Source: an uncultured bacterium (GTDB lineage: Bacteria > Patescibacteriota > Minisyncoccia > Phycocordibacterales > GWA1-40-21). From it: DNA of 64,000 nucleotides. Made by a program: the position numbers and the translations under genes. Positions 13,951-63,814 of this stretch are shown one piece after another. The stretch is from NCBI GenBank assembly GCA_963716205.1, contig OY970290.1, forward strand, positions 175,417 through 239,416. The letters are read 5' to 3'. Numbering within the stretch: the first letter of the stretch is position 1; the number at the start of each line of letters is the position of its first letter. Below the pieces are notes generated by a model, which saw only the letters and a program-made list of their open reading frames with translations, did not search any database and was not told the origin of the DNA.

Positions 13951-13954
13951 ATAT

Positions 13955-14476
13955 ATGAAACTAAACATTCCTTATTATTCGCAATTTTTGGATGTTGATG
14001 ATCAATATTGGTCGCCGCGCGCATGCGGGCCTGTCAATTTATATACGGCGCTTATTTTTTTGAAAAAAGTGCCGGAAAATATGACGCTGATTGATCTCAT
14101 AAAAAAAATGAACAACGATGAAGGATATTATACGAACGGCTGGCGCCACGATGTATTTGTAAACACAGCGCATGAATTTGGTTTATTGAAAGCCCACCGA
14201 GAAGAAAAAATAGATTTTGATTCTGGACTTCTCAAAATAAAAGAAAATCTTGATGCAGGTTTTCCTGTTATTTTTTCTGTAATCAAAAGAACACTTGAGC
14301 AGACAAAATTTCACATGCTCCTTGCGATTGGATATGAACCAGAGAACAACAGGAGCATAAAAGGATTATATTATTACGATCCGGAAAGCACAGATAGAGA
14401 AAAAGGAAAAGATCATTTCGCAACAAAAGAAATGCTGGAAAAAGATTGGCGAAGAATGGCAATATTTTTTCAATAA
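13955..14476 (+). CDS. C39-like (papain-fold) cysteine peptidase domain protein, no signal peptide
   Basis: Start ATG 13955 (MKLNIPYYSQ...); IPYYSQ...W.PRACGPVNLYTALIFL (Cys) and KFHMLLAIGYEP...YYYDP (His) match the peptidase C39-like layout. Confidence 0.55.
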   Translation: MKLNIPYYSQFLDVDDQYWSPRACGPVNLYTALIFLKKVPENMTLIDLIKKMNNDEGYYTNGWRHDVFVNTAHEFGLLKAHREEKIDFDSGLLKIKENLDAGFPVIFSVIKRTLEQTKFHMLLAIGYEPENNRSIKGLYYYDPESTDREKGKDHFATKEMLEKDWRRMAIFFQ

Positions 14477-37556: not shown

Positions 37557-39224
37557 ATGACCCAAAAGGAAGCGATGGAAATTTTGAAGATGGGATACAA
37601 CTGCTATGTCACCGGTGCGGCGGGAAGCGGCAAGACGCATCTGCTCAATGAATATATAAAATTCCTCAAAAACAAAGGTGTGGAAGTCGGTGTCACGGCT
37701 TCAACCGGCATTGCGGCGACGCACATGGGCGGCATGACGATTCACTCATGGAGCGGGCTCGGCATTGCCGATACATTGACCGAATATGATTTGGAAAATC
37801 TCGAGACAAAAAAATATTTGCAGGAGAGATTGAAAAATACCGAGGCGCTTGTCATTGACGAGGTTTCAATGATTCATCACTTTCGTTTGGATTTGATAGA
37901 ACGAATTGTGCGCCATCTCAAAAAAAATCAACTTCCGTTTGGTGGAATGCAAATTATTCTCTGTGGAGATTTTTTTCAGCTTCCGCCGGTTTCCCGGATA
38001 GGCGAGCGGGAATCGCTTTTTCCGTATCGATCCGAGACATGGAAGAAATTAAATCTGAAAATCTGTTATCTTGAGGAACAATATCGCCATAAAGACGACA
38101 AATTCATCAAAATTTTGAATGGAATCAGAAACGGTTTTGTCAGCGATGAATCGCTTGCGCATCTCAAAGAAAGATTTAATGTAAAATTTGGAAATGGAAT
38201 AATTCCGACCAAGCTTCACACGCACAATATCAATGTCGACTCTATCAATGATTTTGAATTGAACAAATTGCCCGGGCAAATGTTCACATTTCAAATGGAA
38301 TCAAAAGGCAGAAAGGCGTTGGTGGATGCTTTGAAAAAAAGCTGTCTGGCACCGGAAATTTTGCGGCTGAAAATCGGTGCGAGTGTTATGTTTGTCAAAA
38401 ATAATTTTGATGCCGGATATGCCAATGGCACACTGGGAAAAGTGATTTCCTGTGATACGTACGGTCCGAAAGTCATGCTGGTTTCCGGCAAAATAATCAT
38501 TCTGGAAAAAGAATCATGGGTGATTGAGGAAGAAGGAAAAACAAAAGCGATTATCACGCAGTATCCGCTCCGCCTCGCATGGGCGATTACCGTGCACAAA
38601 AGCCAGGGCATGAGCCTGGATGCTGTCGAAGTCGACCTCTCGAAATCGTTTGAAAAAGGAATGGGCTACGTGGCGCTTTCGCGCGTGAGAACTTTGGACG
38701 GATTGAAATTGCTCGGTTTGAATAAAAATGCGCTTGAGGTCCGCGAAGATATTGCGCTCTTTGATGAAGAACTGCGAGACTTGTCGGCAAAAGATAAAAG
38801 CTGGCTGCATTCGCTCGATGACAGAGAGATAAAAGAAAAGCAGGAAGAATTTTGGGAAAAAATTGCGCCGGCTGACGGCATAAAAAAGAAAAATAAGAAA
38901 AATCGCATCTCGCCGATCGAAGAAACCCGGAATATGCTGGGAGAGGGAATGGGATTGAAAGAAATTTTGGAAATAAAAGGCGTGAAGCTCGGCACGATCC
39001 TCGATCATATTGAAAAAATTTTAGAAAAAGAACCGGATTTTGACATCAATCATTTAAAGGACGAGGTGCCGCCGGGAAAATTCAAAAAAGCGTATATGAT
39101 GTTCCGCGAAATGTATGGCGAGAACCGCGATTTTCTGCTCGCACCGGTCAAAAATAAACTTGGTGACGGATTTTCCTATGAGGAGTTGAGAATTGTAAGA
39201 TTATTTGTAAAAAAGAATCTATAA
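37557..39224 (+). CDS. Pif1/RecD-family ATP-dependent DNA helicase with C-terminal HTH extension
   Basis: 555 aa; Walker A YNCYVTGAAGSGKTHLL, AAA_30/UvrD_C-like motifs (AWAITVHKSQGMSLD, GYVALSRVR), C-terminal helix-turn-helix-like region (MLGEGMGLKEILEIKGVKLGTILDHIEKI). Confidence 0.8.
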   Translation: MTQKEAMEILKMGYNCYVTGAAGSGKTHLLNEYIKFLKNKGVEVGVTASTGIAATHMGGMTIHSWSGLGIADTLTEYDLENLETKKYLQERLKNTEALVIDEVSMIHHFRLDLIERIVRHLKKNQLPFGGMQIILCGDFFQLPPVSRIGERESLFPYRSETWKKLNLKICYLEEQYRHKDDKFIKILNGIRNGFVSDESLAHLKERFNVKFGNGIIPTKLHTHNINVDSINDFELNKLPGQMFTFQMESKGRKALVDALKKSCLAPEILRLKIGASVMFVKNNFDAGYANGTLGKVISCDTYGPKVMLVSGKIIILEKESWVIEEEGKTKAIITQYPLRLAWAITVHKSQGMSLDAVEVDLSKSFEKGMGYVALSRVRTLDGLKLLGLNKNALEVREDIALFDEELRDLSAKDKSWLHSLDDREIKEKQEEFWEKIAPADGIKKKNKKNRISPIEETRNMLGEGMGLKEILEIKGVKLGTILDHIEKILEKEPDFDINHLKDEVPPGKFKKAYMMFREMYGENRDFLLAPVKNKLGDGFSYEELRIVRLFVKKNL

Positions 39225-39239
39225 TATATATTATAAGAT

Positions 39240-40118
39240 ATGACTTTTAATCAAAAGCAGATGAAAAAGATTTTGCTTTCAGAGTTGAAAAAAGCTGAAG
39301 CAAAAGTTACTCATAGACGGGTAGCTTGTCTTCTTGAAAGTTTCAAGGGAAGTGTATATACAGGACATAATTTTGAGAAAACTATTCCAATGCATTTTTA
39401 TCATGCGGAAGATATGGCTATAAACAAAATGGAAAGATCAAAAGATAAATCCGGTATTAAAAATATAATAATGGCTGGTTATGGTAGGTTGAATAAATAT
39501 AGACAAGTCAGCCCTTGCGAGAATTGTTTCAAATTACTTAAGCCATATTTTAAAAAACAGACAAAATTAACGATATATGAACCGAATACTCATAAATATC
39601 CCTTAAAGTTTTCATTGAAAGAAATTCTTAAATCATATGCCAAAATTGGTTATTCAAAAATTTCTGGAAATAATCTTTCAAGTATTAAAAAATCTTTAAA
39701 AGAAAAAACTTTATTAAAAAGGAAAGATATACTGTTTGCAGCCGGCCTTAGACTTCTTGGTTTAAAAAATCATATCAAATTTTATCTTACAGGGAGTAGT
39801 TCTGGGCGGACAGGGCTGGTGAAGTTGATAAAAGAAAAACAGAAAAAGTCTTATGACGATATAGATATCGTTATTATATCTAAAATAAATAATAAAAGAA
39901 TTGAATCAATTATAAGTAAATACATTGGAAAGGTTTACAACGGGATATATTTAAAAAGAAAAAAACATATTATTTACATTAAAAATGCACCTAAGGAAGA
40001 ATTGAATTATTTTTTAGATTCTAAAAAAATAGTGAGTATAACTATAGGGAAAAATCCGAGAGGAGCTTTTACAAGAATGGATTATTTCAGGAATAATTGG
40101 TTTCATCAGTTATCATAA
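39240..40118 (+). CDS. cytidine-deaminase-fold (CDA) protein with second uncharacterised C-terminal domain; AT-rich, foreign-looking
   Basis: 292 aa; N-terminal domain VACLLESFKGSVYTGHNFEKTIPMHFYHAEDMAINKM...YRQVSPCENCFKLL = HAE / PCxxC zinc motifs of Cdd-type deaminases; C-terminal about 160 aa contains FYLTGSSSGRTGL...SYDDIDIVIISK; gene about 30% GC with tta/aga/ata codons versus roughly 42-48% in neighbours. Confidence 0.55.
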   Translation: MTFNQKQMKKILLSELKKAEAKVTHRRVACLLESFKGSVYTGHNFEKTIPMHFYHAEDMAINKMERSKDKSGIKNIIMAGYGRLNKYRQVSPCENCFKLLKPYFKKQTKLTIYEPNTHKYPLKFSLKEILKSYAKIGYSKISGNNLSSIKKSLKEKTLLKRKDILFAAGLRLLGLKNHIKFYLTGSSSGRTGLVKLIKEKQKKSYDDIDIVIISKINNKRIESIISKYIGKVYNGIYLKRKKHIIYIKNAPKEELNYFLDSKKIVSITIGKNPRGAFTRMDYFRNNWFHQLS

Positions 40119-51548: not shown

Positions 51549-52289
51549 TTACTCTTGTCGGTATGGAGCGGCTTTGATGATATCGATGATTTCATCTTCG
51601 GTATCGACGACGGTGTAAATATTCATGTCTTCTTCGCCGATCGTGCTATTTTCCACAAAAAGTTTCTGTTTGATGACTTTCATGAACGGCATCCAGAATT
51701 CGCTGCCGACGAGAATGACCGGCGTCCGCTCGATTTTATTTGTCTGGATCGAAGTGACAAGGGAAAACAATTCGTCAAACGTTCCGAATCCTCCTGGATA
51801 ATAGACGTAAGCTTCGGCAGCAAAAAATAAAAGCGTTTGGCGATCGAAAAAATATTGGAAATCCGCCGTTTCAGTGACATACGGATTTGTTTTTTGCTCT
51901 TTCGGAAGCTCTATGGTAAAGCCGATGGAAACGCCGCCGGCTTCAAACGCACCTTTATTCGCCGCTTCCATGATTCCCGGACCGCCACCGGTAACGATTG
52001 CGTATTTGAGTTCGGTGACGATTCTTTTTGCGGTTGATTCGGCATGTTTGTAATATTTGCTGTTTTGAGCGAAGCGCGCCGAGCCGAGAATGCTGATCGT
52101 CCGCGGATATTTTTTTATCAGAGCATAGCCGCGATCGAGCTCTGCAAGGGTGATTTTCTCGCGATTTTTAATAACCATTTCCATTTTTGCAATGGTAATG
52201 GGTCCTGCTTCAATATGATTGTCTCGAACAATTTCCCGGTCTTCACTGACTCCCATGTCTTTTTTTGAAAACAAGTTTTTTAATTTCAT
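51549..52289 (-). CDS. LOG-family protein (cytokinin riboside 5'-monophosphate phosphoribohydrolase-like)
   Basis: 246 aa; SILGSARFAQNSKYYKHAESTAKRIVTELKYAIVTGGGPGIMEAANKGAFEAGG...PGGFGTFDELFS. Confidence 0.8.
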   Translation of the reverse strand: MKLKNLFSKKDMGVSEDREIVRDNHIEAGPITIAKMEMVIKNREKITLAELDRGYALIKKYPRTISILGSARFAQNSKYYKHAESTAKRIVTELKYAIVTGGGPGIMEAANKGAFEAGGVSIGFTIELPKEQKTNPYVTETADFQYFFDRQTLLFFAAEAYVYYPGGFGTFDELFSLVTSIQTNKIERTPVILVGSEFWMPFMKVIKQKLFVENSTIGEEDMNIYTVVDTEDEIIDIIKAAPYRQE

Positions 52290-54333: not shown

Positions 54334-54801
54334 TTATAACTGCTGATGTTTGAATGTTTCTTCCACAGCAGAAAAAAACTTCATTTGCTCGTTGAACGGT
54401 AAAAACGCAATGAACATTAATGATTTATCATTGTTTTGAGCAGCTTTCACATGAAGCTTCTCAAGATACGCTTGTTCAAGACATTGGCTAAACGCATCAT
54501 GATTATAAGCTCTTTTGCGTTTTTCAATAAAATCTCGCAGGAATATGAGCTGACCCTTTTCTGACGGAGTATTTCCTGGATAAACGAGATCATACAGATC
54601 AAGACATTCCCATATTTCATTTGCAGTCATTTTCGTGGGAATGACAAATGGTAAAAATAATTTTTCCAGTCGATTCAACTCAATTTTATACAAGCTGTAT
54701 TTTCCTTGATACAGCATTTTTGTTTTTTGTTGGGTTGAATGCCATATTTTTATTGCATTGTACGCGCGCAAAAGCAGTTTTTTCTTCTGATTATTTATCA
54801 C
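54334..54801 (-). CDS. hypothetical protein
   Basis: 155 aa minus-strand ORF, no motif. Confidence 0.4.
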   Translation of the reverse strand: MINNQKKKLLLRAYNAIKIWHSTQQKTKMLYQGKYSLYKIELNRLEKLFLPFVIPTKMTANEIWECLDLYDLVYPGNTPSEKGQLIFLRDFIEKRKRAYNHDAFSQCLEQAYLEKLHVKAAQNNDKSLMFIAFLPFNEQMKFFSAVEETFKHQQL

Positions 54802-54924: not shown

Positions 54925-55311
54925 TTATTTTGGACCGAAGACTGAACTTTCCATAGCTTGTCCTCTTAAATTCTTCACCCGTTGTCCGGTGAGATTCAAA
55001 TTTTTTGCTTGTTCTTGCACAAATTTTTCAACGTCTGCTCTCTTCCTCGCTTTTTTGGAAAGGGGAGCTTTTTTCTTTTGTCCATTCTGTGACATCAACT
55101 TCCTCATTTTTTTTAATTTCGCGCGACGTTTTCTTGCGACCTCGCGGATAAAAATACTATTTTTTCTCGTCGTTTTTTCAAAAAGATCTTGAAATGTTGA
55201 TTTAAATCCTGTCAGATTTTGACTGATGCTTTCTGGATTCTCGAGATTAACATTAAACCTTTTTTCATACCTTCTGCTTGTCAATCTCGCCATATCTAAA
55301 TTCATTGTCAT
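54925..55311 (-). CDS. hypothetical basic (Lys/Arg-rich) protein
   Basis: 128 aa minus-strand ORF, strongly basic C-terminal half (ARKRRAKLKKMRKLMSQNGQKKKAPLSKKARKRA). Confidence 0.4.
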   Translation of the reverse strand: MTMNLDMARLTSRRYEKRFNVNLENPESISQNLTGFKSTFQDLFEKTTRKNSIFIREVARKRRAKLKKMRKLMSQNGQKKKAPLSKKARKRADVEKFVQEQAKNLNLTGQRVKNLRGQAMESSVFGPK

Positions 55312-55384
55312 GATTTTTCTCCAAGGAACGAAATTTTCAAAAAGCTTGAACTTCTATTCGAAATGCTACATAATCACGGAGTAA

Positions 55385-57424
55385 ATGTCAAAATTCAATC
55401 TCAAAGCACAATACGCCCCAGCAGGCGACCAGCCGCAAGCCATCAAAGAGCTTGTGGAAGGCATCAATAAAGATCTGAAAAAACAGACGCTTTTTGGCGC
55501 TACTGGCACGGGAAAGACATTCACTATTGCCAATGTTATCAATCAAATCCAAAAGCCGACCTTGGTCATCGCCCACAACAAAACGCTCGCTGCCCAGCTC
55601 GCCCAGGAATACAAAGAATTTTTTCCCGACAATGCCGTGCATTATTTCGTCTCATACTACGACTACTATCAGCCGGAGGCGTACATGCCGATCACCGACA
55701 CATATATAGAGAAGGAAGCGATGATCAACGAAGAGATTGACCGGCTTCGCCATGCTTCGACTCAAGCGCTTTTGACGAGAAAAGATGTCATCATCGTCGC
55801 ATCAGTTTCCTGCATCTACGGCTTGGGCAATCCGGAGGAATATGAAAAAGTGAATATCAAATTGGTGAAAGGTGAAAAAACCACTCGCCAAGAATTGATC
55901 AAGAAATTGATCCATGTGCATTTTGAACGGACGAATTCCGATATCAAGACAGGCACATTCCGCGCCATCGGCAACGCCATCGAAGTTATGCCGGTCAATG
56001 AAAAGATTCTCATCCGCATTGATATGGAAGATGATTCCATAAAAAATATTTCCCGCATCGATTCCGTTTCCCGCAAGCTTGTCGAGGAAGATATCAAAAC
56101 CATTTTTATTTTCCCGGCGAAACATTTCATCACCGATGCCGACCAGCAAAAGCGGGCGATAGAAAGTATTAAATTTGAATTAGAGGAACGCGTGGCAGAA
56201 TTGAAAAAAGACGGCAAGATGATTGAAGCAGAAAGACTGCGCCGACGCACTACGCACGATCTTTCGCTCATTCGTGAAGTCGGCTATTGCAATGGTATTG
56301 AAAATTATTCCCGCCACTTTTCCGGCAAAGCTGCAGGCGAAGCGCCGGATTCGCTTCTCGAATATTTCCCGAGAAAGGCGGACGGCACGCCGGATTTCCT
56401 CACCGTCATCGACGAGTCGCATGTGACCATCTCCCAGCTCAAAGGCATGTATGCCGGCGATGCTTCGCGCAAAAAAACTTTGATTGATTACGGTTTCCGT
56501 CTGCCATCTGCTCGGGACAACAGACCGCTCAAGTTTGACGAATTCGGCAAAAGGATAAATCAAGTCATTTATACGACCGCCACGCCCGGGGATTATGAAA
56601 AAGAAAATTCAGAAAAAATTGTGGAGCAGATTATCCGCCCGACGGGTCTCATCGATCCGATCGTAGATATCAAGCCGATCACCGAGGTCAAAGGCAAAAA
56701 CAAATCCCAAGTCTATGACTTCATCGACGAAGCGGAAAAAGTAGTAAAAAACGGCGGACGCGTCATCGCCACGACACTGACCAAAAAGATGGCGGAGGAT
56801 TTGAGCGCATATTTGAAAGAAAAAGGTGTGAAGGCGGAATATTTGCACAGTGAGATCAAAACCATCGACCGCATTGATATTCTGACCAATTTCCGCAAAG
56901 GTAAGTTTGACTGTCTCGTCGGCGTGAACCTTTTGCGTGAAGGACTTGATTTGCCCGAAGTAGAATTCATCGGCATACTTGATGCGGACAAAGAAGGTTT
57001 CCTGCGCTCGGATACTTCGCTCATCCAGACTATCGGCAGGGCAGCGAGAAATATTGCCGGGCGCGTGGTGCTCTATGCGGACAGGATGACGGGCTCGATG
57101 GAGCGGGCGATCGAGGAGACCAACAGGCGCCGCGAAAAGCAGCTTGCGTATAATAAAAAGCACGGCATCACGCCAAAGACGATCGTCAAAAAGATCCACG
57201 ACATCACGGAGCATATGCGCAGCGACCACGACAAAGCGGTGGCAGAACTCGTGCGCATCGATGAGCAAATGATCGCGAAATCTCCGGCGAAATTGATCAA
57301 GCAAAAAGAGATCCAAATGAACGCCGCAGTGAAAATGCTGGATTTTGAATCCGCCGCAATTTTGCGCGATGAGATCAAGATTTTGAAGGAGAGGACGGGG
57401 AAGAAGGATATTAAGAAAAAATAA
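55385..57424 (+). CDS. uvrB: excinuclease ABC subunit B
   Basis: 679 aa; Walker A GATGTGKTFT, helicase motifs, beta-hairpin region, C-terminal UvrB/UvrC interaction helix (AAILRDEIKILKE). Confidence 0.95.
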   Translation: MSKFNLKAQYAPAGDQPQAIKELVEGINKDLKKQTLFGATGTGKTFTIANVINQIQKPTLVIAHNKTLAAQLAQEYKEFFPDNAVHYFVSYYDYYQPEAYMPITDTYIEKEAMINEEIDRLRHASTQALLTRKDVIIVASVSCIYGLGNPEEYEKVNIKLVKGEKTTRQELIKKLIHVHFERTNSDIKTGTFRAIGNAIEVMPVNEKILIRIDMEDDSIKNISRIDSVSRKLVEEDIKTIFIFPAKHFITDADQQKRAIESIKFELEERVAELKKDGKMIEAERLRRRTTHDLSLIREVGYCNGIENYSRHFSGKAAGEAPDSLLEYFPRKADGTPDFLTVIDESHVTISQLKGMYAGDASRKKTLIDYGFRLPSARDNRPLKFDEFGKRINQVIYTTATPGDYEKENSEKIVEQIIRPTGLIDPIVDIKPITEVKGKNKSQVYDFIDEAEKVVKNGGRVIATTLTKKMAEDLSAYLKEKGVKAEYLHSEIKTIDRIDILTNFRKGKFDCLVGVNLLREGLDLPEVEFIGILDADKEGFLRSDTSLIQTIGRAARNIAGRVVLYADRMTGSMERAIEETNRRREKQLAYNKKHGITPKTIVKKIHDITEHMRSDHDKAVAELVRIDEQMIAKSPAKLIKQKEIQMNAAVKMLDFESAAILRDEIKILKERTGKKDIKKK

Positions 57425-57430
57425 TATGGA
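57409..57430 (+). repeat. 22-bp direct repeat, copy 1 (uvrB stop / NTase start junction)
   Basis: tattaagaaaaaataatatgga; identical copy at 57848-57869; each copy spans IKKK-stop, 1-nt spacer and ATG-G of the next gene. Confidence 0.8.
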
Positions 57431-57863
57431 TATTTTTGAACGAATTAAAGAATTAAATCTTCCAAAAGGTGAATACATGATATGCGGAAGCGCAATCCTC
57501 GCAGTTCTTGGTATCCGTGAAGCAAAAGACATTGATATTTTGGTATCACCAAAACTTTTTGAAGAATTAGAAAATAAACATGGATGGTTCAGGCATCCGA
57601 AATACAATGACTCTCTTGAACATCCGGAACATATTGCTGGAGCAAAAGCAAACTTGGATTTTATGAAAGAAAATTATACTCTCGATGAAGCACTTTCTCA
57701 GGCGGAAGTAATAAATGATATTCCTTTTATGAATCTTCAAGTGCTCGTGGAAGCAAAAAAACAGCTTGGTAGAGAAAAGGATTTAAAGGATATCGAATTG
57801 ATAGAAAAATTTTTGAAGGAGAGGGTGGAAAAAGGAGAGAAAAAAGTTATTAAGAAAAAATAA
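57426..57863 (+). CDS. minimal nucleotidyltransferase-fold protein, LinA(Lnu)/ANT(2'')-like
   Basis: 145 aa; LPKGEYMICGSAILAVLGIREAKDIDILVSP parallels the h-G-[GS]...R-E-x-x-D-I-D-I core of small lincosamide/aminoglycoside NTases; C-terminal LGREKDLKDIELIEKFL; AT-rich gene with atypical codons; 1 nt after uvrB stop. Confidence 0.55.
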   Translation: MDIFERIKELNLPKGEYMICGSAILAVLGIREAKDIDILVSPKLFEELENKHGWFRHPKYNDSLEHPEHIAGAKANLDFMKENYTLDEALSQAEVINDIPFMNLQVLVEAKKQLGREKDLKDIELIEKFLKERVEKGEKKVIKKK

Positions 57864-57869
57864 TATGGA
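57848..57869 (+). repeat. 22-bp direct repeat, copy 2 (NTase stop / TIR start junction)
   Basis: tattaagaaaaaataatatgga identical to 57409-57430; the two copies precisely bracket the 438-bp NTase ORF. Confidence 0.8.
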
Positions 57870-58542
57870 ATACACAAAACCTTATATAGATAGAGTTTTG
57901 CGAATATTTATAAGTTACTCTTCGAATGACAAGGTTTTGGCGGGTGATTTAAAAGCTGATTTAGATACATATGGTTTCGATACTTTTCTTGCACACGAAG
58001 ATATTGATTTTGCCACTGATTGGGAGAAACAAATACTTCGAGAACTAAAAAGTTGTGATATATTTATTCCAATTCTCTCTGAATCTTTTAAAGAGTCTGA
58101 TTGGGCTTCTCAGGAAATAGGAATTGCAATTGAACTTCAAAAAAAGATTTTACCTTTAAGTCATGGAATTGATCCATACGGATTTATTCGTGGGATTCAA
58201 GCAATGCGAATTGGGGGTAAGGGCAAATATCAATATATTTTTCAAGTTACTAATGAAATTGTTAATCATCTTAAAAATGATGAAAAATATCTGAAGGATT
58301 TAACTGATACCGTAATCAGAGAATTTGTAAATTCTGGTAGCTTCGATTCTGCAAATATTAGAGCAAAAATTTTAAAAACATTTAATGTGTTTAATGAAAA
58401 TCAGGCAACTGAAATAGCCAGGGGATATTTAATGAACTCTCAAATCAGGGGAGGTTTTGATTCTAAAGCTACAGCAGAAAAAATAATTAATGATAACAGA
58501 ACTAAAATTAATCGTGAAATATTAAAGGAGATTAATTTATAA
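57865..58542 (+). CDS. TIR-domain protein with uncharacterised C-terminal domain
   Basis: 225 aa; RIFISYSSNDKVLAGDLKADLDTYGFDTFLAHEDIDFATDWEKQILRELKSCDIFIPILSESFKESDWASQEIGIAIE matches TIR hallmarks (FISYS, G-F...D, W..I, C..FI.ILS, S.W...E with candidate catalytic Glu); about 30% GC. Confidence 0.75.
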   Translation: MEYTKPYIDRVLRIFISYSSNDKVLAGDLKADLDTYGFDTFLAHEDIDFATDWEKQILRELKSCDIFIPILSESFKESDWASQEIGIAIELQKKILPLSHGIDPYGFIRGIQAMRIGGKGKYQYIFQVTNEIVNHLKNDEKYLKDLTDTVIREFVNSGSFDSANIRAKILKTFNVFNENQATEIARGYLMNSQIRGGFDSKATAEKIINDNRTKINREILKEINL

Positions 58543-58604
58543 TTTACTAGACTTTTTCTAATTTTGTGATATAGTTTGTGGGAAGCAGTTCTATATCATC
58601 GCGG

Positions 58605-58856
58605 ATGCGAGAAAGGAAACAATCCTTGAGCCAAAGGAATAAACCGGAAGTGAAGAAAAAACCCTGGTTGTGCGGCGGAAAAAGAAAACTCGATACCAAA
58701 GAGCAGGCGGAAACACGAGCGCACTTTCTTGAGGAATCATCTCGTAAAGATGGCAAGAAAGTTTTTTACAAAGTTAAACCTTGCGAAAAGTGCGAAGGAT
58801 GGCATGTTCTGCTGGATCGTCAAGCAGTGGCAGTTGCTGTGCGAGCAATCGCCTGA
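58605..58856 (+). CDS. small basic Cys-containing protein, hypothetical (start at ATG 58605; ORF opens at TTG 58578)
   Basis: MRERKQSLSQRNKPEVKKKPWLCGG...FYKVKPCEKCEGWHVLL; preceded by 7-bp inverted repeat gatatag-N16-ctatatc; followed by terminator-like hairpin 58879-58907. Confidence 0.4.
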   Translation: MRERKQSLSQRNKPEVKKKPWLCGGKRKLDTKEQAETRAHFLEESSRKDGKKVFYKVKPCEKCEGWHVLLDRQAVAVAVRAIA

Positions 58857-58878
58857 AGTTAGTTCACGTTTACCAAAA

Positions 58879-58907
58879 CCCGTTCTCATTTCAGAGGCGG
58901 GTTTTTT
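58879..58907 (+). terminator. terminator-like hairpin + T-run
   Basis: cccg-ttctc-atttca-gag-g-cggg then TTTTTTATTT. Confidence 0.4.
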
Positions 58908-58909
58908 AT

Positions 58910-58938
58910 TTGCCAAAATCTCAAACTCGGCGTAGTAT
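58910..58938 (+). promoter_or_regulatory. sigma70-like promoter (TTGCCA-17-TAGTAT)
   Basis: TTGCCA 58910-58915, TAGTAT 58933-58938; the motif TTTTTTATTTGCCAAA recurs at 59367-59382 ahead of uvrA. Confidence 0.4.
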
Positions 58939-58980
58939 TTAGGCAGAAGCAAAATTGAAATCCATCCCAAGGAGACAGTG

Positions 58981-59193
58981 ATGAAAAAGTCATTCATGGC
59001 ATTCTTGTTGTATGTCGTTACGCTCATCAGAAATTTCTCAAACAAAGCGGGCTCACCTGTATTTTCAAACGGAAGCACAAGTTTGCTTCCATCGAAGTTG
59101 ATGCGCATCATCTGGATGCCCGGTGCGAATTATGTCGCACAGAACTCCGTGATGCAAAATCTTCGGCCGAATATAGGCGTTTGTTTCAAATAA
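58981..59193 (+). CDS. small protein with hydrophobic N-terminus, hypothetical (competes with antisense ORF 58737-59111)
   Basis: ATG 58981 preceded by AAGGAGA SD and the 58910 promoter; MKKSFMAFLLYVVTLIRNF...; stop overlaps the next ATG as TAATG. Confidence 0.3.
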   Translation: MKKSFMAFLLYVVTLIRNFSNKAGSPVFSNGSTSLLPSKLMRIIWMPGANYVAQNSVMQNLRPNIGVCFK

Positions 59194-59318
59194 TGAGTAT
59201 GACGATATCAAAGGATGGCTATGCCGCCGATGTTGTTTTTAGGACAGGTAGCGGTGTTCATTCAGTTCACGTCATGACGCACAAAGCCATGAAGCGAATG
59301 CTTGGACAAGATGAATAA
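59193..59318 (+). CDS. 41-aa ORF translationally coupled (TAATG) to the preceding small gene, hypothetical
   Basis: MSMTISKDGYAADVVFRTGSGVHSVHVMTHKAMKRMLGQDE; followed by terminator 59343-59372. Confidence 0.25.
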   Translation: MSMTISKDGYAADVVFRTGSGVHSVHVMTHKAMKRMLGQDE

Positions 59319-59342
59319 GAAAGTTGCCAATTTTCGGCAAAA

Positions 59343-59372
59343 AGCATCGACCTTCGGGTACGGTGCTTTTTT
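59343..59372 (+). terminator. rho-independent terminator (UUCG tetraloop) upstream of uvrA promoter
   Basis: agcatcgacc-ttcg-ggtacggtgct stem (one G-U, one bulge) followed by TTTTTT. Confidence 0.5.
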
Positions 59373-59373
59373 A

Positions 59374-59401
59374 TTTGCCAAACTCTGAAATGAAGTATAA
59401 T
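59374..59401 (+). promoter_or_regulatory. sigma70-like promoter for uvrA (TTTGCC/TTGCCA ... TATAAT)
   Basis: TTGCCA 59375-59380, perfect TATAAT 59396-59401 (15-16 nt spacer). Confidence 0.45.
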
Positions 59402-59449
59402 ATGCTCGTATACAACCCCTAGCGGCAAGCGAGGGGCGATTAATGTTAT

Positions 59450-62056
59450 ATGACACCACAAAAACCAACAAAAACAGGCTTCAATGAAGAAGCGAAAGAG
59501 ATCATCGTCAAAGGCGCGCGGACGCACAATCTGCGTGATATTACCGTGCACATGCCGCGCAATAAAATGATCGCGGTGACGGGCTTGTCCGGAAGCGGCA
59601 AGTCATCTTTTGCTTTTGATACGATCTTTGCGGAAGGGCAGAGACGATACGTGGAGTCACTTTCTTCATACGCAAGGCAATTCCTCCATCAGATGCAGAA
59701 GCCGGATGTGGACGAGATCATCGGACTTTCACCCGCGATCGCCATCGACCAAAAGTCGCGTTCCAACAATCCTCGCTCAACGGTCGCGACCATCACTGAG
59801 ATCTATGACTATTTGAGAATTCTCTATGCGCGTATCGGCAGGCCGCATTGTTTGGTGTGCAATCGAGAGATCAAGAAATTATCGAAAGAAGAAATTCTCG
59901 AGACGATCATTCATACGGTGACTCATTTAAAACAAGCAAAAAATTCCAAAGAAATTCTCGGCGTGGAAGTGAGCAATGACAAAGTGAAGATATTTTCTCC
60001 GGTCATCGTGGGACGAAAAGGGGAATACTATCAATTACTCTATGATCTTTTGGAAAAAGGATATGAGACGGTCAAAGTGGACGGCGAGCTGAAGAAATTG
60101 AGGAATCAGATCGTTCTTGCAAAAAATAAAGCGCACGATATCGATGTGCTCGTGGACGAATTTTATATTTCAGAATTCAAGGAGAAAAAATCCGGAATAA
60201 AGGAGCGATTGAGCGATGCAGTGGAAAAAGCAATCGAAGAATCAAAAGGTTTATTGAAAATCGAGACGCCCGAAGAGACGAAAATGATATCGGTGAAATT
60301 CATGTGCCCGTACGACGGATATTCGTATCCGGAGATTGAACCGCGGCTTTTCTCTTTCAATTCTCCGTATGGCGCTTGTCCTGAATGTCACGGACTCGGT
60401 ACAAAAGATTTCTGGACGGACGAGGTCTGCGATATGTGCCATGGAAAAAGATTGCGCGAGGAAGCATTGCATGTTTTGATTGGAGGAATAAACATTGTGG
60501 ACTACACGGTAAAGTCCATCACTGATGCGAAAATTTTCCTCGAAGGCGTGAAATTGACCGAGACTGAAATGGAGATCTGCAAAGTCATCTTGAAAGAGAT
60601 CGATGCGCGGCTGCGTTTTATGAGCGATGTCGGTATTGAATATCTTTCACTCGACAGACGGGCAAATACACTCTCGGGCGGAGAAGCACAACGTATTCGC
60701 CTGGCTAGTCAGCTCGGAAGCGGACTCGTCGGTGCGCTTTATGTGCTCGATGAGCCGACGATTGGTTTGCATCAAAGGGACAATGACAAACTCATAAAAA
60801 CATTGATAAATCTGCGTGATTTGGGAAATACCATTCTCGTCGTCGAGCATGACGAAGATACGATGTATGCATCGGACTATATCGTAGACATCGGTCCGGG
60901 CGCAGGAGTACACGGCGGCAAAGTTGTCGTTTCCGGCTGGCTCGATGAACTTTTGACTGCAAAGACGAACAAAAGTGGTTCGGTGACGCTTGATTATTTG
61001 CGCGGAGATCTGCAAGTGGAAATTCCGAAAAAAAGACGAGACCAGGACAAAGGCAAGCTGAAAGTGCGCGGCGGGAAGATTTTCAATATCAAAAATATGG
61101 ACGTGGATGTGCCGCTCGGCAAGCTCGTGATGATCACCGGCGTTTCTGGCTCGGGCAAATCTTCATTTGTGTATGAGATCCTTTACAAAAATCTGCAGGC
61201 GCGGCTTGAGCGCAAATATCGCTCGGCGAATATTTATAATTGCGGATCTTTTACCGGATCGGAATATGTTTCGCGCACGATCATGATCGACCAGTCGCCG
61301 ATCGGCAGGACTCCGCGCTCAAACCCGGCGACGTATATCGGCGCGTGGACATTCATCCGCGACATGTTTGCAACGACGGTGATGGCACGAGAAAGAGGAT
61401 GGAAATCAAACAGATTTTCATTCAATGTCAAAGGCGGCAGATGTGAGAACTGCGAAGGCAACGGCATGATCGAAGTGGAAATGCATTTCTTGCCGACGGT
61501 CTATGTGCCGTGCGATGTCTGTCATGGAAAAAGATTTACCAAAGAAACTTTGGAAGTGAAATATAAAGGCAAAAATATTCACGAAATATTGGAAATGACT
61601 GCGGAGGAAGCCCAGGAATTTTTTGCCGACTTGCCGGCAGTATATGATCGCATTAAATGTTTGAATGAAGTCGGTTTGGGATATCTGACCCTTGGTCAAT
61701 CTGCGACAACTTTGTCCGGTGGAGAAGCACAGCGCGTGAAAATTGCTTCGGAACTCTATCGTCCCGGTTTGCACAAGACCATTTACTTTTTGGATGAGCC
61801 GACGATAGGTCTACATTATGAAGATGTCAAAAAGTTGATCGAGATCTTGCAGAAGCTCGTGAATAACGGCAACACGGTCGTAGTCATCGAGCACAACATG
61901 GACATCATCAAATCCTCTGACTATATTATTGATATTGGTCCGGAAGGTGGGGACAAAGGCGGACAGATTGTTGCACGCGGCACGCCGGAAGACGTGGCAA
62001 TGAATGAAAAAAGCTATACGGGAAAATATTTGAAAAGGGTTTTGAAGAAGAAATAA
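59450..62056 (+). CDS. uvrA: excinuclease ABC subunit A
   Basis: 868 aa; tandem ABC ATPase modules (GLSGSGKSS, GVSGSGKSS; LSGGEAQR x2; LDEPT x2), Cys zinc fingers (CPECHG, CENCEG...CDVCHG). Confidence 0.95.
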   Translation: MTPQKPTKTGFNEEAKEIIVKGARTHNLRDITVHMPRNKMIAVTGLSGSGKSSFAFDTIFAEGQRRYVESLSSYARQFLHQMQKPDVDEIIGLSPAIAIDQKSRSNNPRSTVATITEIYDYLRILYARIGRPHCLVCNREIKKLSKEEILETIIHTVTHLKQAKNSKEILGVEVSNDKVKIFSPVIVGRKGEYYQLLYDLLEKGYETVKVDGELKKLRNQIVLAKNKAHDIDVLVDEFYISEFKEKKSGIKERLSDAVEKAIEESKGLLKIETPEETKMISVKFMCPYDGYSYPEIEPRLFSFNSPYGACPECHGLGTKDFWTDEVCDMCHGKRLREEALHVLIGGINIVDYTVKSITDAKIFLEGVKLTETEMEICKVILKEIDARLRFMSDVGIEYLSLDRRANTLSGGEAQRIRLASQLGSGLVGALYVLDEPTIGLHQRDNDKLIKTLINLRDLGNTILVVEHDEDTMYASDYIVDIGPGAGVHGGKVVVSGWLDELLTAKTNKSGSVTLDYLRGDLQVEIPKKRRDQDKGKLKVRGGKIFNIKNMDVDVPLGKLVMITGVSGSGKSSFVYEILYKNLQARLERKYRSANIYNCGSFTGSEYVSRTIMIDQSPIGRTPRSNPATYIGAWTFIRDMFATTVMARERGWKSNRFSFNVKGGRCENCEGNGMIEVEMHFLPTVYVPCDVCHGKRFTKETLEVKYKGKNIHEILEMTAEEAQEFFADLPAVYDRIKCLNEVGLGYLTLGQSATTLSGGEAQRVKIASELYRPGLHKTIYFLDEPTIGLHYEDVKKLIEILQKLVNNGNTVVVIEHNMDIIKSSDYIIDIGPEGGDKGGQIVARGTPEDVAMNEKSYTGKYLKRVLKKK

Positions 62057-62101: not shown

Positions 62102-62392
62102 CTATTTTATTTTAGCTATTCCTTTAGCAAACCAATCATTCTTTTTTCTTAGTCGTTCAAAAATTCTTCTCTTTAGATATTCCTTACTTTTTCGCCGGAT
62201 CCATTCGGCGGGCGTCTCAGAAGGAATTTTTACGGTGAAATCTGCAGATTCTATTTGTACCAAGGTTAAAACTTCTTTCACGGTCTTTTTCCACAATTTC
62301 TCGTGAAAGGGTAAATTTTTCTGGAACTCTTTCAAGAGTCCATTAACCTTTTTCTCTAACTTTTTGAGTTTCTTTCTTTTTCCCTTTATCAC
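62102..62392 (-). CDS. hypothetical basic protein (96 aa, GTG start), AT-rich cassette gene 2
   Basis: MIKGKRKKLKKLEKKVNGLLKEF...; GTG start 4 nt after GGAGGT SD which itself follows the stop of the upstream 66-aa gene; AT-rich. Confidence 0.4.
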   Translation of the reverse strand: MIKGKRKKLKKLEKKVNGLLKEFQKNLPFHEKLWKKTVKEVLTLVQIESADFTVKIPSETPAEWIRRKSKEYLKRRIFERLRKKNDWFAKGIAKIK

Positions 62393-62405: not shown

Positions 62406-62606
62406 CTAATTTAGATAAACTGAAAAAACAAAAACTTCCTCTTCGCGAAACTCTTTGTTAATGACTGTCAAAAACTTCTTCACATCAGCAAGACATTTTT
62501 TACTTTCTTGGCTGATTTCGCGAGCCTCGACAAGAATATCTTTTAATGTTTTCAAGAAATCCTCCAGAGTTGAGTTGATCCGTTTGCTATGGTATAACAC
62601 TAACAA
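62406..62606 (-). CDS. hypothetical small protein (66 aa), AT-rich cassette gene 1
   Basis: MLVLYHSKRINSTLEDFLKTLKDILVEAREISQESKKCLADVKKFLTVINKEF...; divergent from uvrC; AT-rich. Confidence 0.4.
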   Translation of the reverse strand: MLVLYHSKRINSTLEDFLKTLKDILVEAREISQESKKCLADVKKFLTVINKEFREEEVFVFSVYLN

Positions 62607-63814
62607 TGAACAGTCAAGATTTCAAAAAAATCAATCTGCCGGATGAGCCGGGAGTTTATCTCTTCAAAAAAGGGAAGGAGATTTTGTATATCGGCAAAGC
62701 GACGTCGCTCCGTGAACGGGTAAAAAGTTATTTTGCTGCCGACTTGATCGCCACACGCGGACCGTTGCTTGTCGATATGGTTTTCCAGGCGGACAAAATC
62801 AATTTCATCCAGACCGACTCTGTTATCGAAGCGCTTATTTTGGAAAGTAATCTGATCAAAAAGCATCAGCCGCGATACAACACAAAAGAAAAAGATGATC
62901 GCAGCTACAATTATGTCGTGATCACCAAAGAAGATTTCCCCAGAGTTTTGATAGAACGGGGGAAGAATTTGAAGATGAACACCCTGAAACTGAAAGCGAC
63001 ATACGGACCGTTCACGAATGGTACCCAGCTCAAAGACGCGATGAAAATCATCCGCAAGATTTTCCCTTTTCTTGATAATTATTCCGAAAAGAAAACCGGC
63101 TATAGATTTTACCGGGAGATCGGACTCGCACCGGAAGTTGGAAGCAGTGAAGCGAAAAAAGAGTATGCACAGACGATCAAAAACCTCATGTTATTTTTTG
63201 CAGGCAAGAAAACGAGTATTATTAAAAAATTGGAAAAAGAAATGAAAATATATGCCACAAAACAGGAATTCGAAAAAGCTGATGCGGTGAAAAAAACAAT
63301 ATTTGTGCTCAATCATATTCAGGACGTCGCGCTTATCAAATCTGATTTTTCCGGAGAAAAATTACAGGATACTTTCCGGATCGAAGCGTATGATGTGGCA
63401 CATACGAGCGGGACAAATACTGTCGGCGTGATGACGGTTATAGAAAACGGAAAGATAAATAAAAATGAATACAGAAAATTTAAAATAAATAACAGCATTC
63501 AAAATGACGTTGCTGGACTTTCTGAAATGCTTGAACGACGGCTCAAACACAACGAATGGCAATTCCCAAATATGATTGTTGTCGATGGATCAATTGCTCA
63601 GAAAAATATTGCGGAAAAAATTGTGAAAAATTTTAGAGCAAAAATTGCAGTTATTGCCGTAACGAAAGACGAACGACATCGACCAAAAAGCATTCAGGGC
63701 AGGGAAGATATTATCGAAAAATATAAAAAAGACATTTTGCTTGCCAATAGCGAAGCACATCGCTTTGTCGTCAAATATCACAGGGAAAAGAGAAACAAAA
63801 GTTCTCTTTTGTAA
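62606..63814 (+). CDS. uvrC: excinuclease ABC subunit C, short form (GIY-YIG + UvrB-binding + RNase H-like endonuclease domain; no C-terminal HhH)
   Basis: 402 aa; GIY-YIG PDEPGVYLFKKGKEILYIGKATSLRERV...N, UvrBC domain, endonuclease region RIEAYDVAHTSGTNTVGVMTVIENGK...YRKFKI, MIVVDGSIAQ. Confidence 0.85.
   Translation: MNSQDFKKINLPDEPGVYLFKKGKEILYIGKATSLRERVKSYFAADLIATRGPLLVDMVFQADKINFIQTDSVIEALILESNLIKKHQPRYNTKEKDDRSYNYVVITKEDFPRVLIERGKNLKMNTLKLKATYGPFTNGTQLKDAMKIIRKIFPFLDNYSEKKTGYRFYREIGLAPEVGSSEAKKEYAQTIKNLMLFFAGKKTSIIKKLEKEMKIYATKQEFEKADAVKKTIFVLNHIQDVALIKSDFSGEKLQDTFRIEAYDVAHTSGTNTVGVMTVIENGKINKNEYRKFKINNSIQNDVAGLSEMLERRLKHNEWQFPNMIVVDGSIAQKNIAEKIVKNFRAKIAVIAVTKDERHRPKSIQGREDIIEKYKKDILLANSEAHRFVVKYHREKRNKSSLL

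Follow-up and report, generated by a model that had tools for sequence, protein, structure and literature searches.

Two small genes lie between the host genes uvrB and uvrA in the 64,000 nt window (the whole stretch of DNA analysed here), one encoding a nucleotidyltransferase (NTase; gene 1) and the other a TIR protein (gene 2). The features of this part of the locus are:

55346–55374, + strand: promoter-like site upstream of uvrB; no other candidate promoter precedes genes 1 and 2
55385–57424, + strand: uvrB, host gene, 679 aa (ORF list)
57381–57430, + strand: direct repeat copy 1, comprising the last 14 uvrB codons, the stop codon, 1 nt and ATGGA (gene 1 start)
57426–57863, + strand: gene 1, 145 aa, stand-alone Pol-beta-fold NTase
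57811–57869, + strand: direct repeat copy 2, comprising the gene 1 3′ end (FLKERVEKGEKKVIKKK and stop), 1 nt and ATGGA (gene 2 start)
57865–58542, + strand: gene 2, 225 aa
57901–58218, + strand: TIR domain of gene 2 (approximately aa 13–118), with the candidate catalytic Glu84 in SDWASQE
58225–58539, + strand: all-helical C-terminal domain of gene 2 (aa 121–225)
59450–62056, + strand: uvrA, host gene, 868 aa
62606–63814: uvrC (ORF list)

The ORF coordinates agree with the gene positions given in an initial annotation of this DNA, and leave spacers of 1 nt both between uvrB and gene 1 and between gene 1 and gene 2. Such tight packing is also compatible with a functional operon. The uvrB product is 60–70% identical to UvrB of the closest Parcubacteria-group relatives (L009–L026), and 54–60% identical to that of more distant candidate-phylum loci.

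The base composition of the two genes differs sharply from that of their neighbours. The GC content across 57400–58600 is 0.28–0.34, compared with 0.43–0.55 in uvrB and uvrA, and GC3 falls to 0.27 in gene 1 and 0.19 in gene 2, against 0.59 in uvrB and 0.53 in uvrA. The codon bias that had been claimed for both genes is borne out: TTA accounts for 34% of the insert's Leu codons versus 4% in uvrB and uvrA together, ATA for 29% versus 9% of Ile codons, CGC for 0% versus 41% of Arg codons, and GCG for 9% versus 38% of Ala codons. The AT-rich insert had been put at approximately 2 kb; this stands for the 1.1 kb from 57426 to 58542, but not for the remaining 0.9 kb or so, which has a host-like GC content of 0.42–0.47. 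Rfam and tRNA scans of the region gave no matches.

The segment between gene 2 and uvrA contains a series of small open frames and putative regulatory sites:

58514–58575, + strand: an overlapping pair of promoter-like sites (GTGAAA-18-TATAAT and TAGACT-16-TATAGT; consensus matches only), at the gene 2 3′ end and upstream of ORF92
58578–58856, + strand: ORF92, putative orphan frame; basic, with four Cys and host-like GC
58875–58905, + strand: terminator-like hairpin followed by a U-tract, the first after uvrB (fold −14.8 kcal/mol, z = −3.7)
58902–58925, + strand: repeat copy 1, T-tract plus −35 box (TTTTTTATTTGCCAAA...), part of a promoter-like site at 58910–58938
58978–59193 (71 aa) and 59193–59318 (41 aa), + strand: two TAATG-joined putative open frames, overlapping a minus-strand 124-aa ORF
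59340–59370, + strand: second terminator-like hairpin (UUCG loop, U-tract directly after it; fold −21.0 kcal/mol, z = −3.4)
59367–59403, + strand: repeat copy 2 plus promoter-like site TTGCCA-17-TAATAT, upstream of uvrA

The earlier description of promoter/terminator-delimited small frames is accurate in so far as the frames are open and the two + strand hairpins and the promoter-like sites are real. ORF92 had no Pfam, PADLOC or NCBIfam match and its homologue search was empty, tblastn of all four small ORFs against every locus collected by that stage gave no match, and the small downstream ORFs are absent from a 15-billion-protein collection, for which gene callers chose the 124-aa ORF at 58737–59111 on the minus strand. 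The T-tract/−35 repeat is identical at 22/24 positions between 58902–58925 and 59367–59390; these are its only two matches in the window, with 0 matches in 100 shuffles.

Our scans detected no + strand terminator-like site between the uvrB stop codon and the hairpin at 58875–58905, and neither gene 1 nor gene 2 has a promoter-like site where it begins, so that the read-through from uvrB proposed in the initial annotation is plausible. Given the 1 nt spacings and the lack of a promoter or terminator of their own, genes 1 and 2 are probably co-transcribed with uvrB from its promoter, and their translation is probably coupled. A link to the SOS response through a Cheo-type box at uvrB was also considered. 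There is one such site, with 1 mismatch, at the uvrB promoter, but the pattern is not enriched (18 matches in the window versus 26.8 expected), and the candidate was dropped because the matches fell below expectation.

The 3′ end of uvrB is duplicated in this locus. The two copies, of 50–59 nt, are identical at 46/48 aligned columns in a local alignment that scores 65, compared with 21 ± 3.5 (maximum 38) for shuffled sequences. An exact 21-mer of the repeat occurs twice only in the window, and two matches were found in 0/100 shuffles. As a consequence of the duplication, residues 128–145 or so of gene 1 are encoded by the uvrB-tail duplicate, and NTase homologues stop approximately 10 residues before the gene 1 C-terminus; the original 3′ end of gene 1 was probably replaced by a duplicate of the last 14 uvrB codons. 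The duplicate is a recombination scar between genes 1 and 2, and the presence of a uvrB-tail copy at the end of gene 1 thus points to a microhomology-type recombination that separates gene 1 from the TIR gene. The tail duplication shows that recombination took place here, but it is not strict proof of a separate arrival of genes 1 and 2.

Gene 1 does encode a nucleotidyltransferase of the Pol-beta fold. The NTase core motif reported earlier is real: motif I consists of G21-S22...D35-x-D37, all four of these residues being conserved or invariant across the 40-member family, and a C-terminal motif follows at K111...R116-E-K-D119. The family comprises stand-alone NTases of approximately 135 aa that are widespread in metagenomes; the search for it gave 165 NTase hits. 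The structures nearest to gene 1 are TM1012, MenT1, ANT(2'') and LnuA, and the toxins MenT1 and TglT are among the NTases closest to it in fold. A likeness to LinA/ANT(2'') had been proposed earlier; ANT(2'') and LnuA are among the closest structures, and the NCBIfam and Pfam resistance models were not matched. No match above threshold was obtained for gene 1 with profiles of the TM1012-like, MenT1/AbiEii-like, LnuA or ANT(2'') families, and its clade differs from all of these in having Gly at the position of the third carboxylate. This usual catalytic residue is Gly in 13/15 near-clade sequences and Glu/Asp in 22 of the 25 more distant members, and because of the Gly in the near clade the catalytic competence of gene 1 is uncertain. 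When PDB sequences were searched with the NTase profile, the sole match was insignificant (E 0.77). The deaminase-domain ORF at 39240–40118 has an NTase-like C-terminus, to which gene 1 is unrelated by hhalign. Judging from the structural neighbours, our best guess is that the substrate is either a small molecule or the 3′ end of an RNA.

Gene 2 was correctly recognized as a TIR protein. It matches Pfam TIR_2 (PF13676) over aa 14–114 with 62.9 bits (cut-off 28, E 5.3e-17). All 23 members of its family also match TIR_2, and FLAHED, W80 and E84 are invariant among them. The candidate catalytic Glu pointed out in SDWASQE is this E84; in phmmer alignments the motif pairs with KDWVHKE of SARM1, whose aligned Glu is known to be the catalytic E642. 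Gene 2 has a flavodoxin-like TIR fold that is superposable on solved TIR NADases, and its structure is nearer to the NADase-type TIRs (SARM1, plant TIRs, SpbK and AbTIR). Gene 2 belongs to a small conserved family in which an N-terminal TIR domain is joined to a helical C-terminal domain of approximately 105 aa; the latter sits after the TIR_2 domain in 8/10 relatives tested, and 42 representatives of it were collected. SpbK of Bacillus subtilis, AbTIR and the SARM1 TIR lack this extra all-helical domain, and gene 2 differs from them also in its host, a candidate-phylum bacterium whose genome is tiny. Searches of the C-terminal domain found no SAVED, STING or Pycsar-effector-type sensing domain, and neither profiles nor sequence inspection revealed HEPN matches or an Rx4-6H motif. 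Where positions are given for the CAP12-PCTIR_TIR matches of family members, these fall at the beginning of the TIR domain. Relatives of gene 2 adjoin a restriction-modification pair, or integrase, resolvase and NERD genes. Viral contigs yielded no relatives of either gene 1 or gene 2.

The C-terminal domain has one counterpart in a characterized system. PD-T7-3 from Escherichia coli ECOR30 (RCP48690.1) is an experimentally validated single-gene anti-phage defence (PMC9519451), with a HEPN/DUF4145-like N-terminal domain at residues 19–148 according to HHpred (PMC9519451, Table S3). Residues 121–216 of gene 2 match the PADLOC PD-T7-3 profile with E 1.3e-7, a match that rests on one profile HMM and covers positions 320–417 of 432 rather than its full length. 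In 6/23 family members the C-terminal domain matches this profile (best E 1.7e-8). In each of the two proteins the common C-terminal region is preceded by an N-terminal domain of the effector type, but PD-T7-3 is about twice as long and has a HEPN-like domain where gene 2 has a TIR domain.

Gene 2 is probably a single-gene phage defence, a stand-alone TIR protein of the predicted NAD-cleaving type. The C-terminal domain would sense or regulate, the TIR domains would self-associate, and Glu84 would catalyse NAD+ cleavage, leading to depletion or to production of a signal. The protein most likely acts alone in this way as an abortive-infection or defence effector, much as other defences do that combine an effector and a sensor in one gene.

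The comparison with relatives addresses the origin of the insert. In the 26 relatives that carry uvrB and uvrA on one locus, the gap between the two genes is <200 nt in 9/26, 334 nt in one, and 0.75–7.2 kb of unrelated genes in 16/26; neither the NTase nor the TIR gene is present at the junction in any of the 26. The suggestion that the genes are foreign and that the insert is missing in relatives thus gains support from both composition and context, and the insert is lineage-specific, at a junction that is variable across the group. In most of the other loci checked, members of both families likewise have a higher AT content than the DNA around them, as for the TIR gene in locus L170 (GC 0.35 versus 0.60 in the rest of the locus).

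Whether the two genes belong together was assessed in 87 NTase-family loci, which encode 75 distinct proteins, and in 10 TIR-family loci, several of them short. Many of the NTase loci are short contigs, but 68 of the 87 extend for at least 500 nt beyond the gene on its downstream side. Neither tblastn nor a family HMM detected a TIR gene in the NTase loci (0/87), and this NTase is present in 0/10 TIR loci; the pair, within this sample, never recurs. The genes beside the NTase vary widely (SecA, PBP, ITPase-like, Nudix, GNAT), with no conserved neighbour among the 254 flanking ORFs of the 87 loci, and no conserved neighbour is common to the 10 TIR loci. The closest homologues of each gene (74–75% identical) are found in other contexts. 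The two-gene NTase+TIR module favoured in the initial annotation is not supported, given this lack of co-occurrence and the uvrB-tail duplicate between the genes, and its fallback of two unrelated cargo genes is the better supported on the same evidence, together with the lack of conserved neighbours. We consider it likely that the uvrB–uvrA interval of this Parcubacteria-like (candidate phyla radiation) genome was built up as a mosaic from separate insertions, and that it contains two AT-rich, horizontally acquired and functionally independent genes.

Several known systems were compared and rejected. CBASS and Pycsar share with this locus an NTase-fold gene beside a TIR gene. The CD-NTases of CBASS are cGAS/DncV-like proteins of about 300–400 aa; a CD-NTase membership test placed gene 1 outside this group, as the initial annotation had held, and the C-terminal domain of gene 2 matched no nucleotide-sensing domain. 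A HEPN-MNT or MenT-type toxin–antitoxin pair was discarded, as the 87 loci contain no conserved NTase partner or antitoxin-like gene; gene 1 is also smaller than MenT1, whose solved chain has 195 aa, and than the 290–292-aa chains of MenT4/TglT. Thoeris was rejected because ThsA is lacking and the ThsB scores are sub-threshold. Gene 2 resembles ThsB as a stand-alone TIR protein whose TIR core is matched by ThsB profiles, but it has no ThsA partner and scores far under the curated cut-offs (14.8 bits against 21.2 for Pfam ThsB_TIR, and 45.9 against 220 for NCBIfam ThcB4). The genes around it are uvrB, the NTase, orphan ORFs and uvrA, with no adjacent ThsA-type effector gene. Among the ten ORFs scanned in 45.6–55.3 kb, one (51549–52289) matches Lysine_decarbox and the SLOG-type LDcluster4, and SIR2, Macro and TIR domains are absent from all ten.

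It is nonetheless conceivable that genes 1 and 2 form a lineage-specific functional two-gene system expressed with uvrB, in which the NTase makes a nucleotide signal, modifies the TIR protein or its target, or acts as an antitoxin, and the TIR protein is an NAD+-consuming effector. The shared strand, the 1 nt spacing without an internal promoter or terminator, the AT-rich and foreign character of both genes and the toxin-related NTase fold speak for such a system, but in view of the co-occurrence results we regard it, and each of these roles, as very unlikely. Scarcely probable is the more specific proposal that the two were joined under the uvrB transcript, for example with the NTase nucleotidylating or gating the TIR NADase and so linking DNA damage or phage stress to NAD+ depletion; if true, this would be a new minimal NTase–TIR architecture, recently assembled by recombination at the uvrB 3′ end. 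It is highly improbable that gene 2 is the ThsB-type sensor of a Thoeris-like system, its product activating a ThsA-like effector encoded elsewhere: the profile matches are limited to the generic TIR core, no ThsA-like gene (SIR2, Macro or SLOG-effector) occurs beside gene 2 or in the 10 family loci, and gene 2 lies structurally nearer to SARM1, plant TIRs, SpbK and AbTIR. Neither gene need have an immune function, gene 2 being a TIR-fold housekeeping enzyme or scaffold (in NAD/nucleoside metabolism or protein–protein interaction), gene 1 a housekeeping or antibiotic-modifying NTase, and the position in the uvr cluster incidental. We judge this unlikely, the suggested housekeeping roles of gene 2 included, given the patchy distribution, the foreign composition, the absence from 26/26 relatives, the defence or mobile contexts of TIR relatives, the conserved catalytic Glu, the C-terminal domain in common with PD-T7-3, and the lack of any match to the NCBIfam Lnu or ANT resistance models.

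Overall, the reading of the locus as two independent acquisitions removes a tempting false lead, as a small NTase beside a TIR gene is not, on present evidence, a new CBASS- or Thoeris-like architecture. As well as bringing to light a small uncharacterized TIR family with a helical C-terminal domain, our analysis suggests that this domain is a shared module carrying different effector domains, because the gene 2 family and PD-T7-3 have the C-terminal region in common under different N-terminal domains. A candidate-phylum bacterium, represented by a contig of approximately 0.68 Mb, keeps a TIR gene inside a core DNA-repair cluster, where it probably depends on the uvrB promoter, and the uvrB-tail scar at the NTase C-terminus illustrates how operons of such genomes take in individual genes.

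The open reading frame map of the uvr locus agrees with the coordinates of the initial annotation, with 1 nt separating uvrB from the small nucleotidyltransferase (NTase) gene, gene 1, and 1 nt separating gene 1 from the TIR gene, gene 2. The encoded proteins have exact matches on a contig of 681,747 bp.

Features of the uvr locus (window coordinates)
55385-57424, + strand, uvrB
57381-57430, uvrB-end repeat copy 1 (last 14 uvrB codons, stop, one base, ATGGA)
57426-57863, + strand, gene 1 (145 aa)
57811-57869, uvrB-end repeat copy 2 (end of gene 1)
57865-58542, + strand, gene 2 (225 aa)
58578-58856, ORF92, a basic open frame with four Cys
58737-59111, - strand, 124-aa ORF, the sole frame of this stretch in public gene calls
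58875-58905, + strand, first good terminator hairpin (RNA fold -14.8 kcal/mol, z -3.7)
58978-59318, TAATG-linked open frames of 71 aa and 41 aa
59340-59370, + strand, second terminator hairpin (RNA fold -21.0 kcal/mol, z -3.4)
59450-62056, + strand, uvrA
62606-63814, uvrC

The GC content of 57400-58600 is 0.28-0.34 (window mean, 0.417), and from about 58600 onwards it is back up at 0.42-0.47. GC3 is 0.27 in gene 1 and 0.19 in gene 2, compared with 0.59 in uvrB and 0.53 in uvrA. The codon-preference contrast previously drawn between the insert and its neighbours is upheld: TTA encodes 34% of Leu in the insert versus 4% in uvrB and uvrA together, and CGC encodes 0% versus 41% of Arg. An AT-rich insert of about 2 kb had been described, but foreign composition is limited to the 1.1 kb with genes 1 and 2; the other 0.9 kb, up to uvrA, resembles the host.

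The minus strand has small, AT-rich orphan ORFs bordering uvrB (54334-54801 and 54925-55311) and lying between uvrA and uvrC (62102-62392 and 62406-62606). None of the four has a significant Pfam match (62406-62606 has weak, sub-threshold matches only), and the two upstream of uvrB have no significant match in PADLOC. At 402 aa, UvrC is short; it contains GIY-YIG, UVR and RNase H-like endonuclease domains, and the domain search gave no match for a C-terminal helix-hairpin-helix region. Parcubacteria relatives align with UvrC end to end, and the short form therefore seems typical of the group.

The promoter scan found no promoter-like site ahead of gene 1 or gene 2, and the terminator scan found no + strand terminator-like site downstream of the uvrB stop, the first good hairpin starting at 58875. 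Both genes are thus likely to be expressed through the uvrB promoter with translational coupling, in line with the read-through suggested by the initial annotation. A Cheo-box-type pattern was not enriched. For the mini-operon proposed downstream, the promoter and terminator punctuation is present, but mini-operon status is not established. ORF92, the 71-aa and 41-aa frames and the minus-strand 124-aa ORF gave no family matches where scanned and no tblastn match in the fetched loci; a homologue search with ORF92 found none, and codon usage does not separate the small + strand frames from the minus-strand ORF.

Elsewhere in the window, a further AT-rich island, with GC 0.297 across 39001-40000, carries a 292-aa ORF (39240-40118, +), located 15 nt after a PIF1-like helicase gene (37557-39224, +). 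The encoded protein starts with a cytidine/dCMP deaminase domain (36.2 bits, cut-off 25); its C-terminus, which has an NTase-like GSSS...DDIDIVII motif, matched no profile and showed no relation to gene 1 in hhalign. In another AT-rich stretch, the 3' end of a 788-aa ORF (11584-13950), by eye resembling the phenylalanyl-tRNA synthetase beta subunit, is overlapped by a 184-aa Peptidase_C39_2-like ORF (13922-14476, +).

Gene 1 is best supported as a stand-alone small nucleotidyltransferase. No curated profile matched it at threshold (best, NTP_transf_5, E 0.028), and its homologue family of approximately 135-aa proteins comprises 58 matches with identity down to 34%. Residues D35, D37, K111, R116, K118 and D119 are invariant in this family, and the NTase signature has a conserved G-S. 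The AF2 model reaches pLDDT 90.4, and in the fold comparison CD-NTases score approximately 3.3. The earlier description, of a small LinA/ANT(2'')-like enzyme and not a CD-NTase, stands for the fold; membership of the LinA/ANT(2'') resistance families is unsupported by profiles. The strand position where the third catalytic carboxylate usually lies (residue 72) is Gly in 13 of 15 near-clade sequences and Glu/Asp in 22 of 25 distant family members, and E65, K74 and D78 are conserved in the near clade only. In the near clade, including gene 1, the active site may therefore be relocated or altered, with different chemistry. At locus L001 (6500-10665), a 66%-identical homologue lies beside a GmrSD_N, HNH, MazG and DUF4145 gene cluster that looks like a defence island; the cluster is on the opposite strand to the homologue, and the other NTase loci do not conserve it.

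The TIR identity claimed for gene 2 is borne out, and gene 2 is a real TIR protein. Residues 14-114 match Pfam TIR_2 (62.9 bits, cut-off 28), the AF2 model is confident (pLDDT 91.5), and FLAHED, W80, E84, P104, G106, F107 and N191 are invariant in A2, the alignment of the 23-member TIR family. A phmmer search of the PDB paired SDWASQE with KDWVHKE of SARM1, the glutamate of which is known to be catalytic, so E84 occupies the position of the catalytic glutamate. Gene 2 is a stand-alone TIR protein and plausibly a single-gene defence effector, and we lean, modestly, towards a defence NADase. A 338-aa family member (L170, 3926-4942; Patescibacteria MAG GCA_028712155.1, contig JAQTQO010000011.1) lies between dnaK and dnaJ and is followed by a MazG-like gene of 110 aa and two unknown ones; its GC content is 0.35 versus 0.60 in the remainder of the locus. 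It is a further case, in a candidate-phylum genome, of a TIR gene inserted into a conserved cluster of stress genes.

The initial annotation proposed that genes 1 and 2 form an NTase + TIR module, with two unrelated cargo genes as the fallback. We assembled 87 NTase loci (80 from a metagenome scan and seven from exact look-ups; 75 distinct proteins), 68 of which had at least 500 nt downstream, and ten TIR loci (L008, L169-L174 and L176-L178). Within this available sample, the module finds no counterpart: no TIR gene was near the NTase in any of the 87 loci (tblastn with 25 TIR-family queries, and an HMM built from the same queries), and no NTase was near the TIR-family gene in any of the ten. 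The NTase has no recurrent partner in its 87 loci, where it is flanked by varied genes, largely of housekeeping type (SecA in nine loci, ITPase-like in six, a PBP, Nudix and GNAT). The TIR-family gene has no conserved neighbour across its ten, where contexts include a methyltransferase + MvaI/BcnI restriction pair, an integrase/resolvase/NERD region and a dnaK-dnaJ interval in another Patescibacteria genome. The closest homologues of gene 1 and gene 2 (74-75% identical each) sit in unrelated contexts. Neither family was found on viral contigs; both tend to exceed their surroundings in AT at most other loci checked, as expected of mobile accessory genes.

The repeats flanking gene 1 bear on the same question. 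Of 48 aligned bases in the two uvrB-end copies, 46 agree, and the copies differ by a net insertion of 9 nt. Their alignment scores 65, whereas shuffles gave 21 +/- 3.5 (maximum 38); in the 64 kb, just two sites carry the exact 21-mer ATTAAGAAAAAATAATATGGA, both in this repeat. As a result of the duplication, the gene 1 ending ...FLKERVEKGEKKVIKKK mimics the uvrB ending ...ILKERTGKKDIKKK. Gene 1 homologues end about 10 residues sooner, and the extra tail is disordered in the AF2 model; this tail is encoded by a duplicate of the last 14 uvrB codons and looks like a microhomology-type insertion scar. The simplest reading would be a microhomology-mediated insertion or template switch that used ATGGA at one boundary and TTTTGAAGG at the other, which would leave gene 1 between two copies of the uvrB/next-gene junction. 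Such an arrangement argues against delivery of the two cargo genes as one native unit. A shorter repeat, TTTTTTATTTGCCAAA... (58902-58925 and 59367-59390, 22/24 identical), is a duplicated T-tract and -35 box; it brackets a 465-bp stretch with small ORFs, which suggests that a further insertion took place in a similar way.

The junction itself is variable. The nearest UvrB proteins (60-70% identity) come from the Parcubacteria group within the candidate phyla radiation, and among 26 relatives with uvrB and uvrA on one locus the uvrB-uvrA-uvrC order is kept whilst the uvrB-uvrA gap varies: below 200 nt in nine, 334 nt in one and 0.75-7.2 kb in 16, where it is filled by unrelated genes. Their products include response regulators, DedA-like and DUF218/SanA-like proteins and a cupin, and the GC of these genes is mostly host-like; a small secreted protein recurs among them (loci L009-L046). 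No relative of gene 1 or gene 2 lies in the gap of any of the 26. Candidate-phylum genomes have therefore gained genes repeatedly at the uvrB-uvrA junction, and the present insert is lineage-specific. Two unrelated cargo genes is the best-supported picture, and we consider it quite probable that genes 1 and 2 are independent accessory genes at a variable junction.

Gene 1 clearly illustrates a cargo gene taking its 3' end from the upstream host gene. Gene 2 encodes a known kind of TIR protein with an uncharacterized C-terminal module that partly matches the PD-T7-3 profile. Residues 121-225 form a separate seven-helix bundle, for which a search of 1.84 billion representatives returned only 42 relatives. 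The domain follows a TIR_2 domain in eight of ten relatives tested; the remaining two are multi-stretch matches in proteins with other domains, and were taken as spurious. It matches positions 320-417 of the 432 in the PADLOC PD-T7-3 profile (E 1.3e-7), and six of the 23 TIR-family members match this profile (best E 1.7e-8). PD-T7-3 is a single-gene Escherichia coli system with experimentally demonstrated protection against T-even and T7 phages, and its HEPN/DUF4145-like region spans residues 19-148 (both from the main text and Table S3 of PMC9519451). Judged by this partial profile match, gene 2 and PD-T7-3 therefore appear to have a C-terminal module in common behind different N-terminal effector-type domains, TIR in the former and HEPN/DUF4145-like in the latter.
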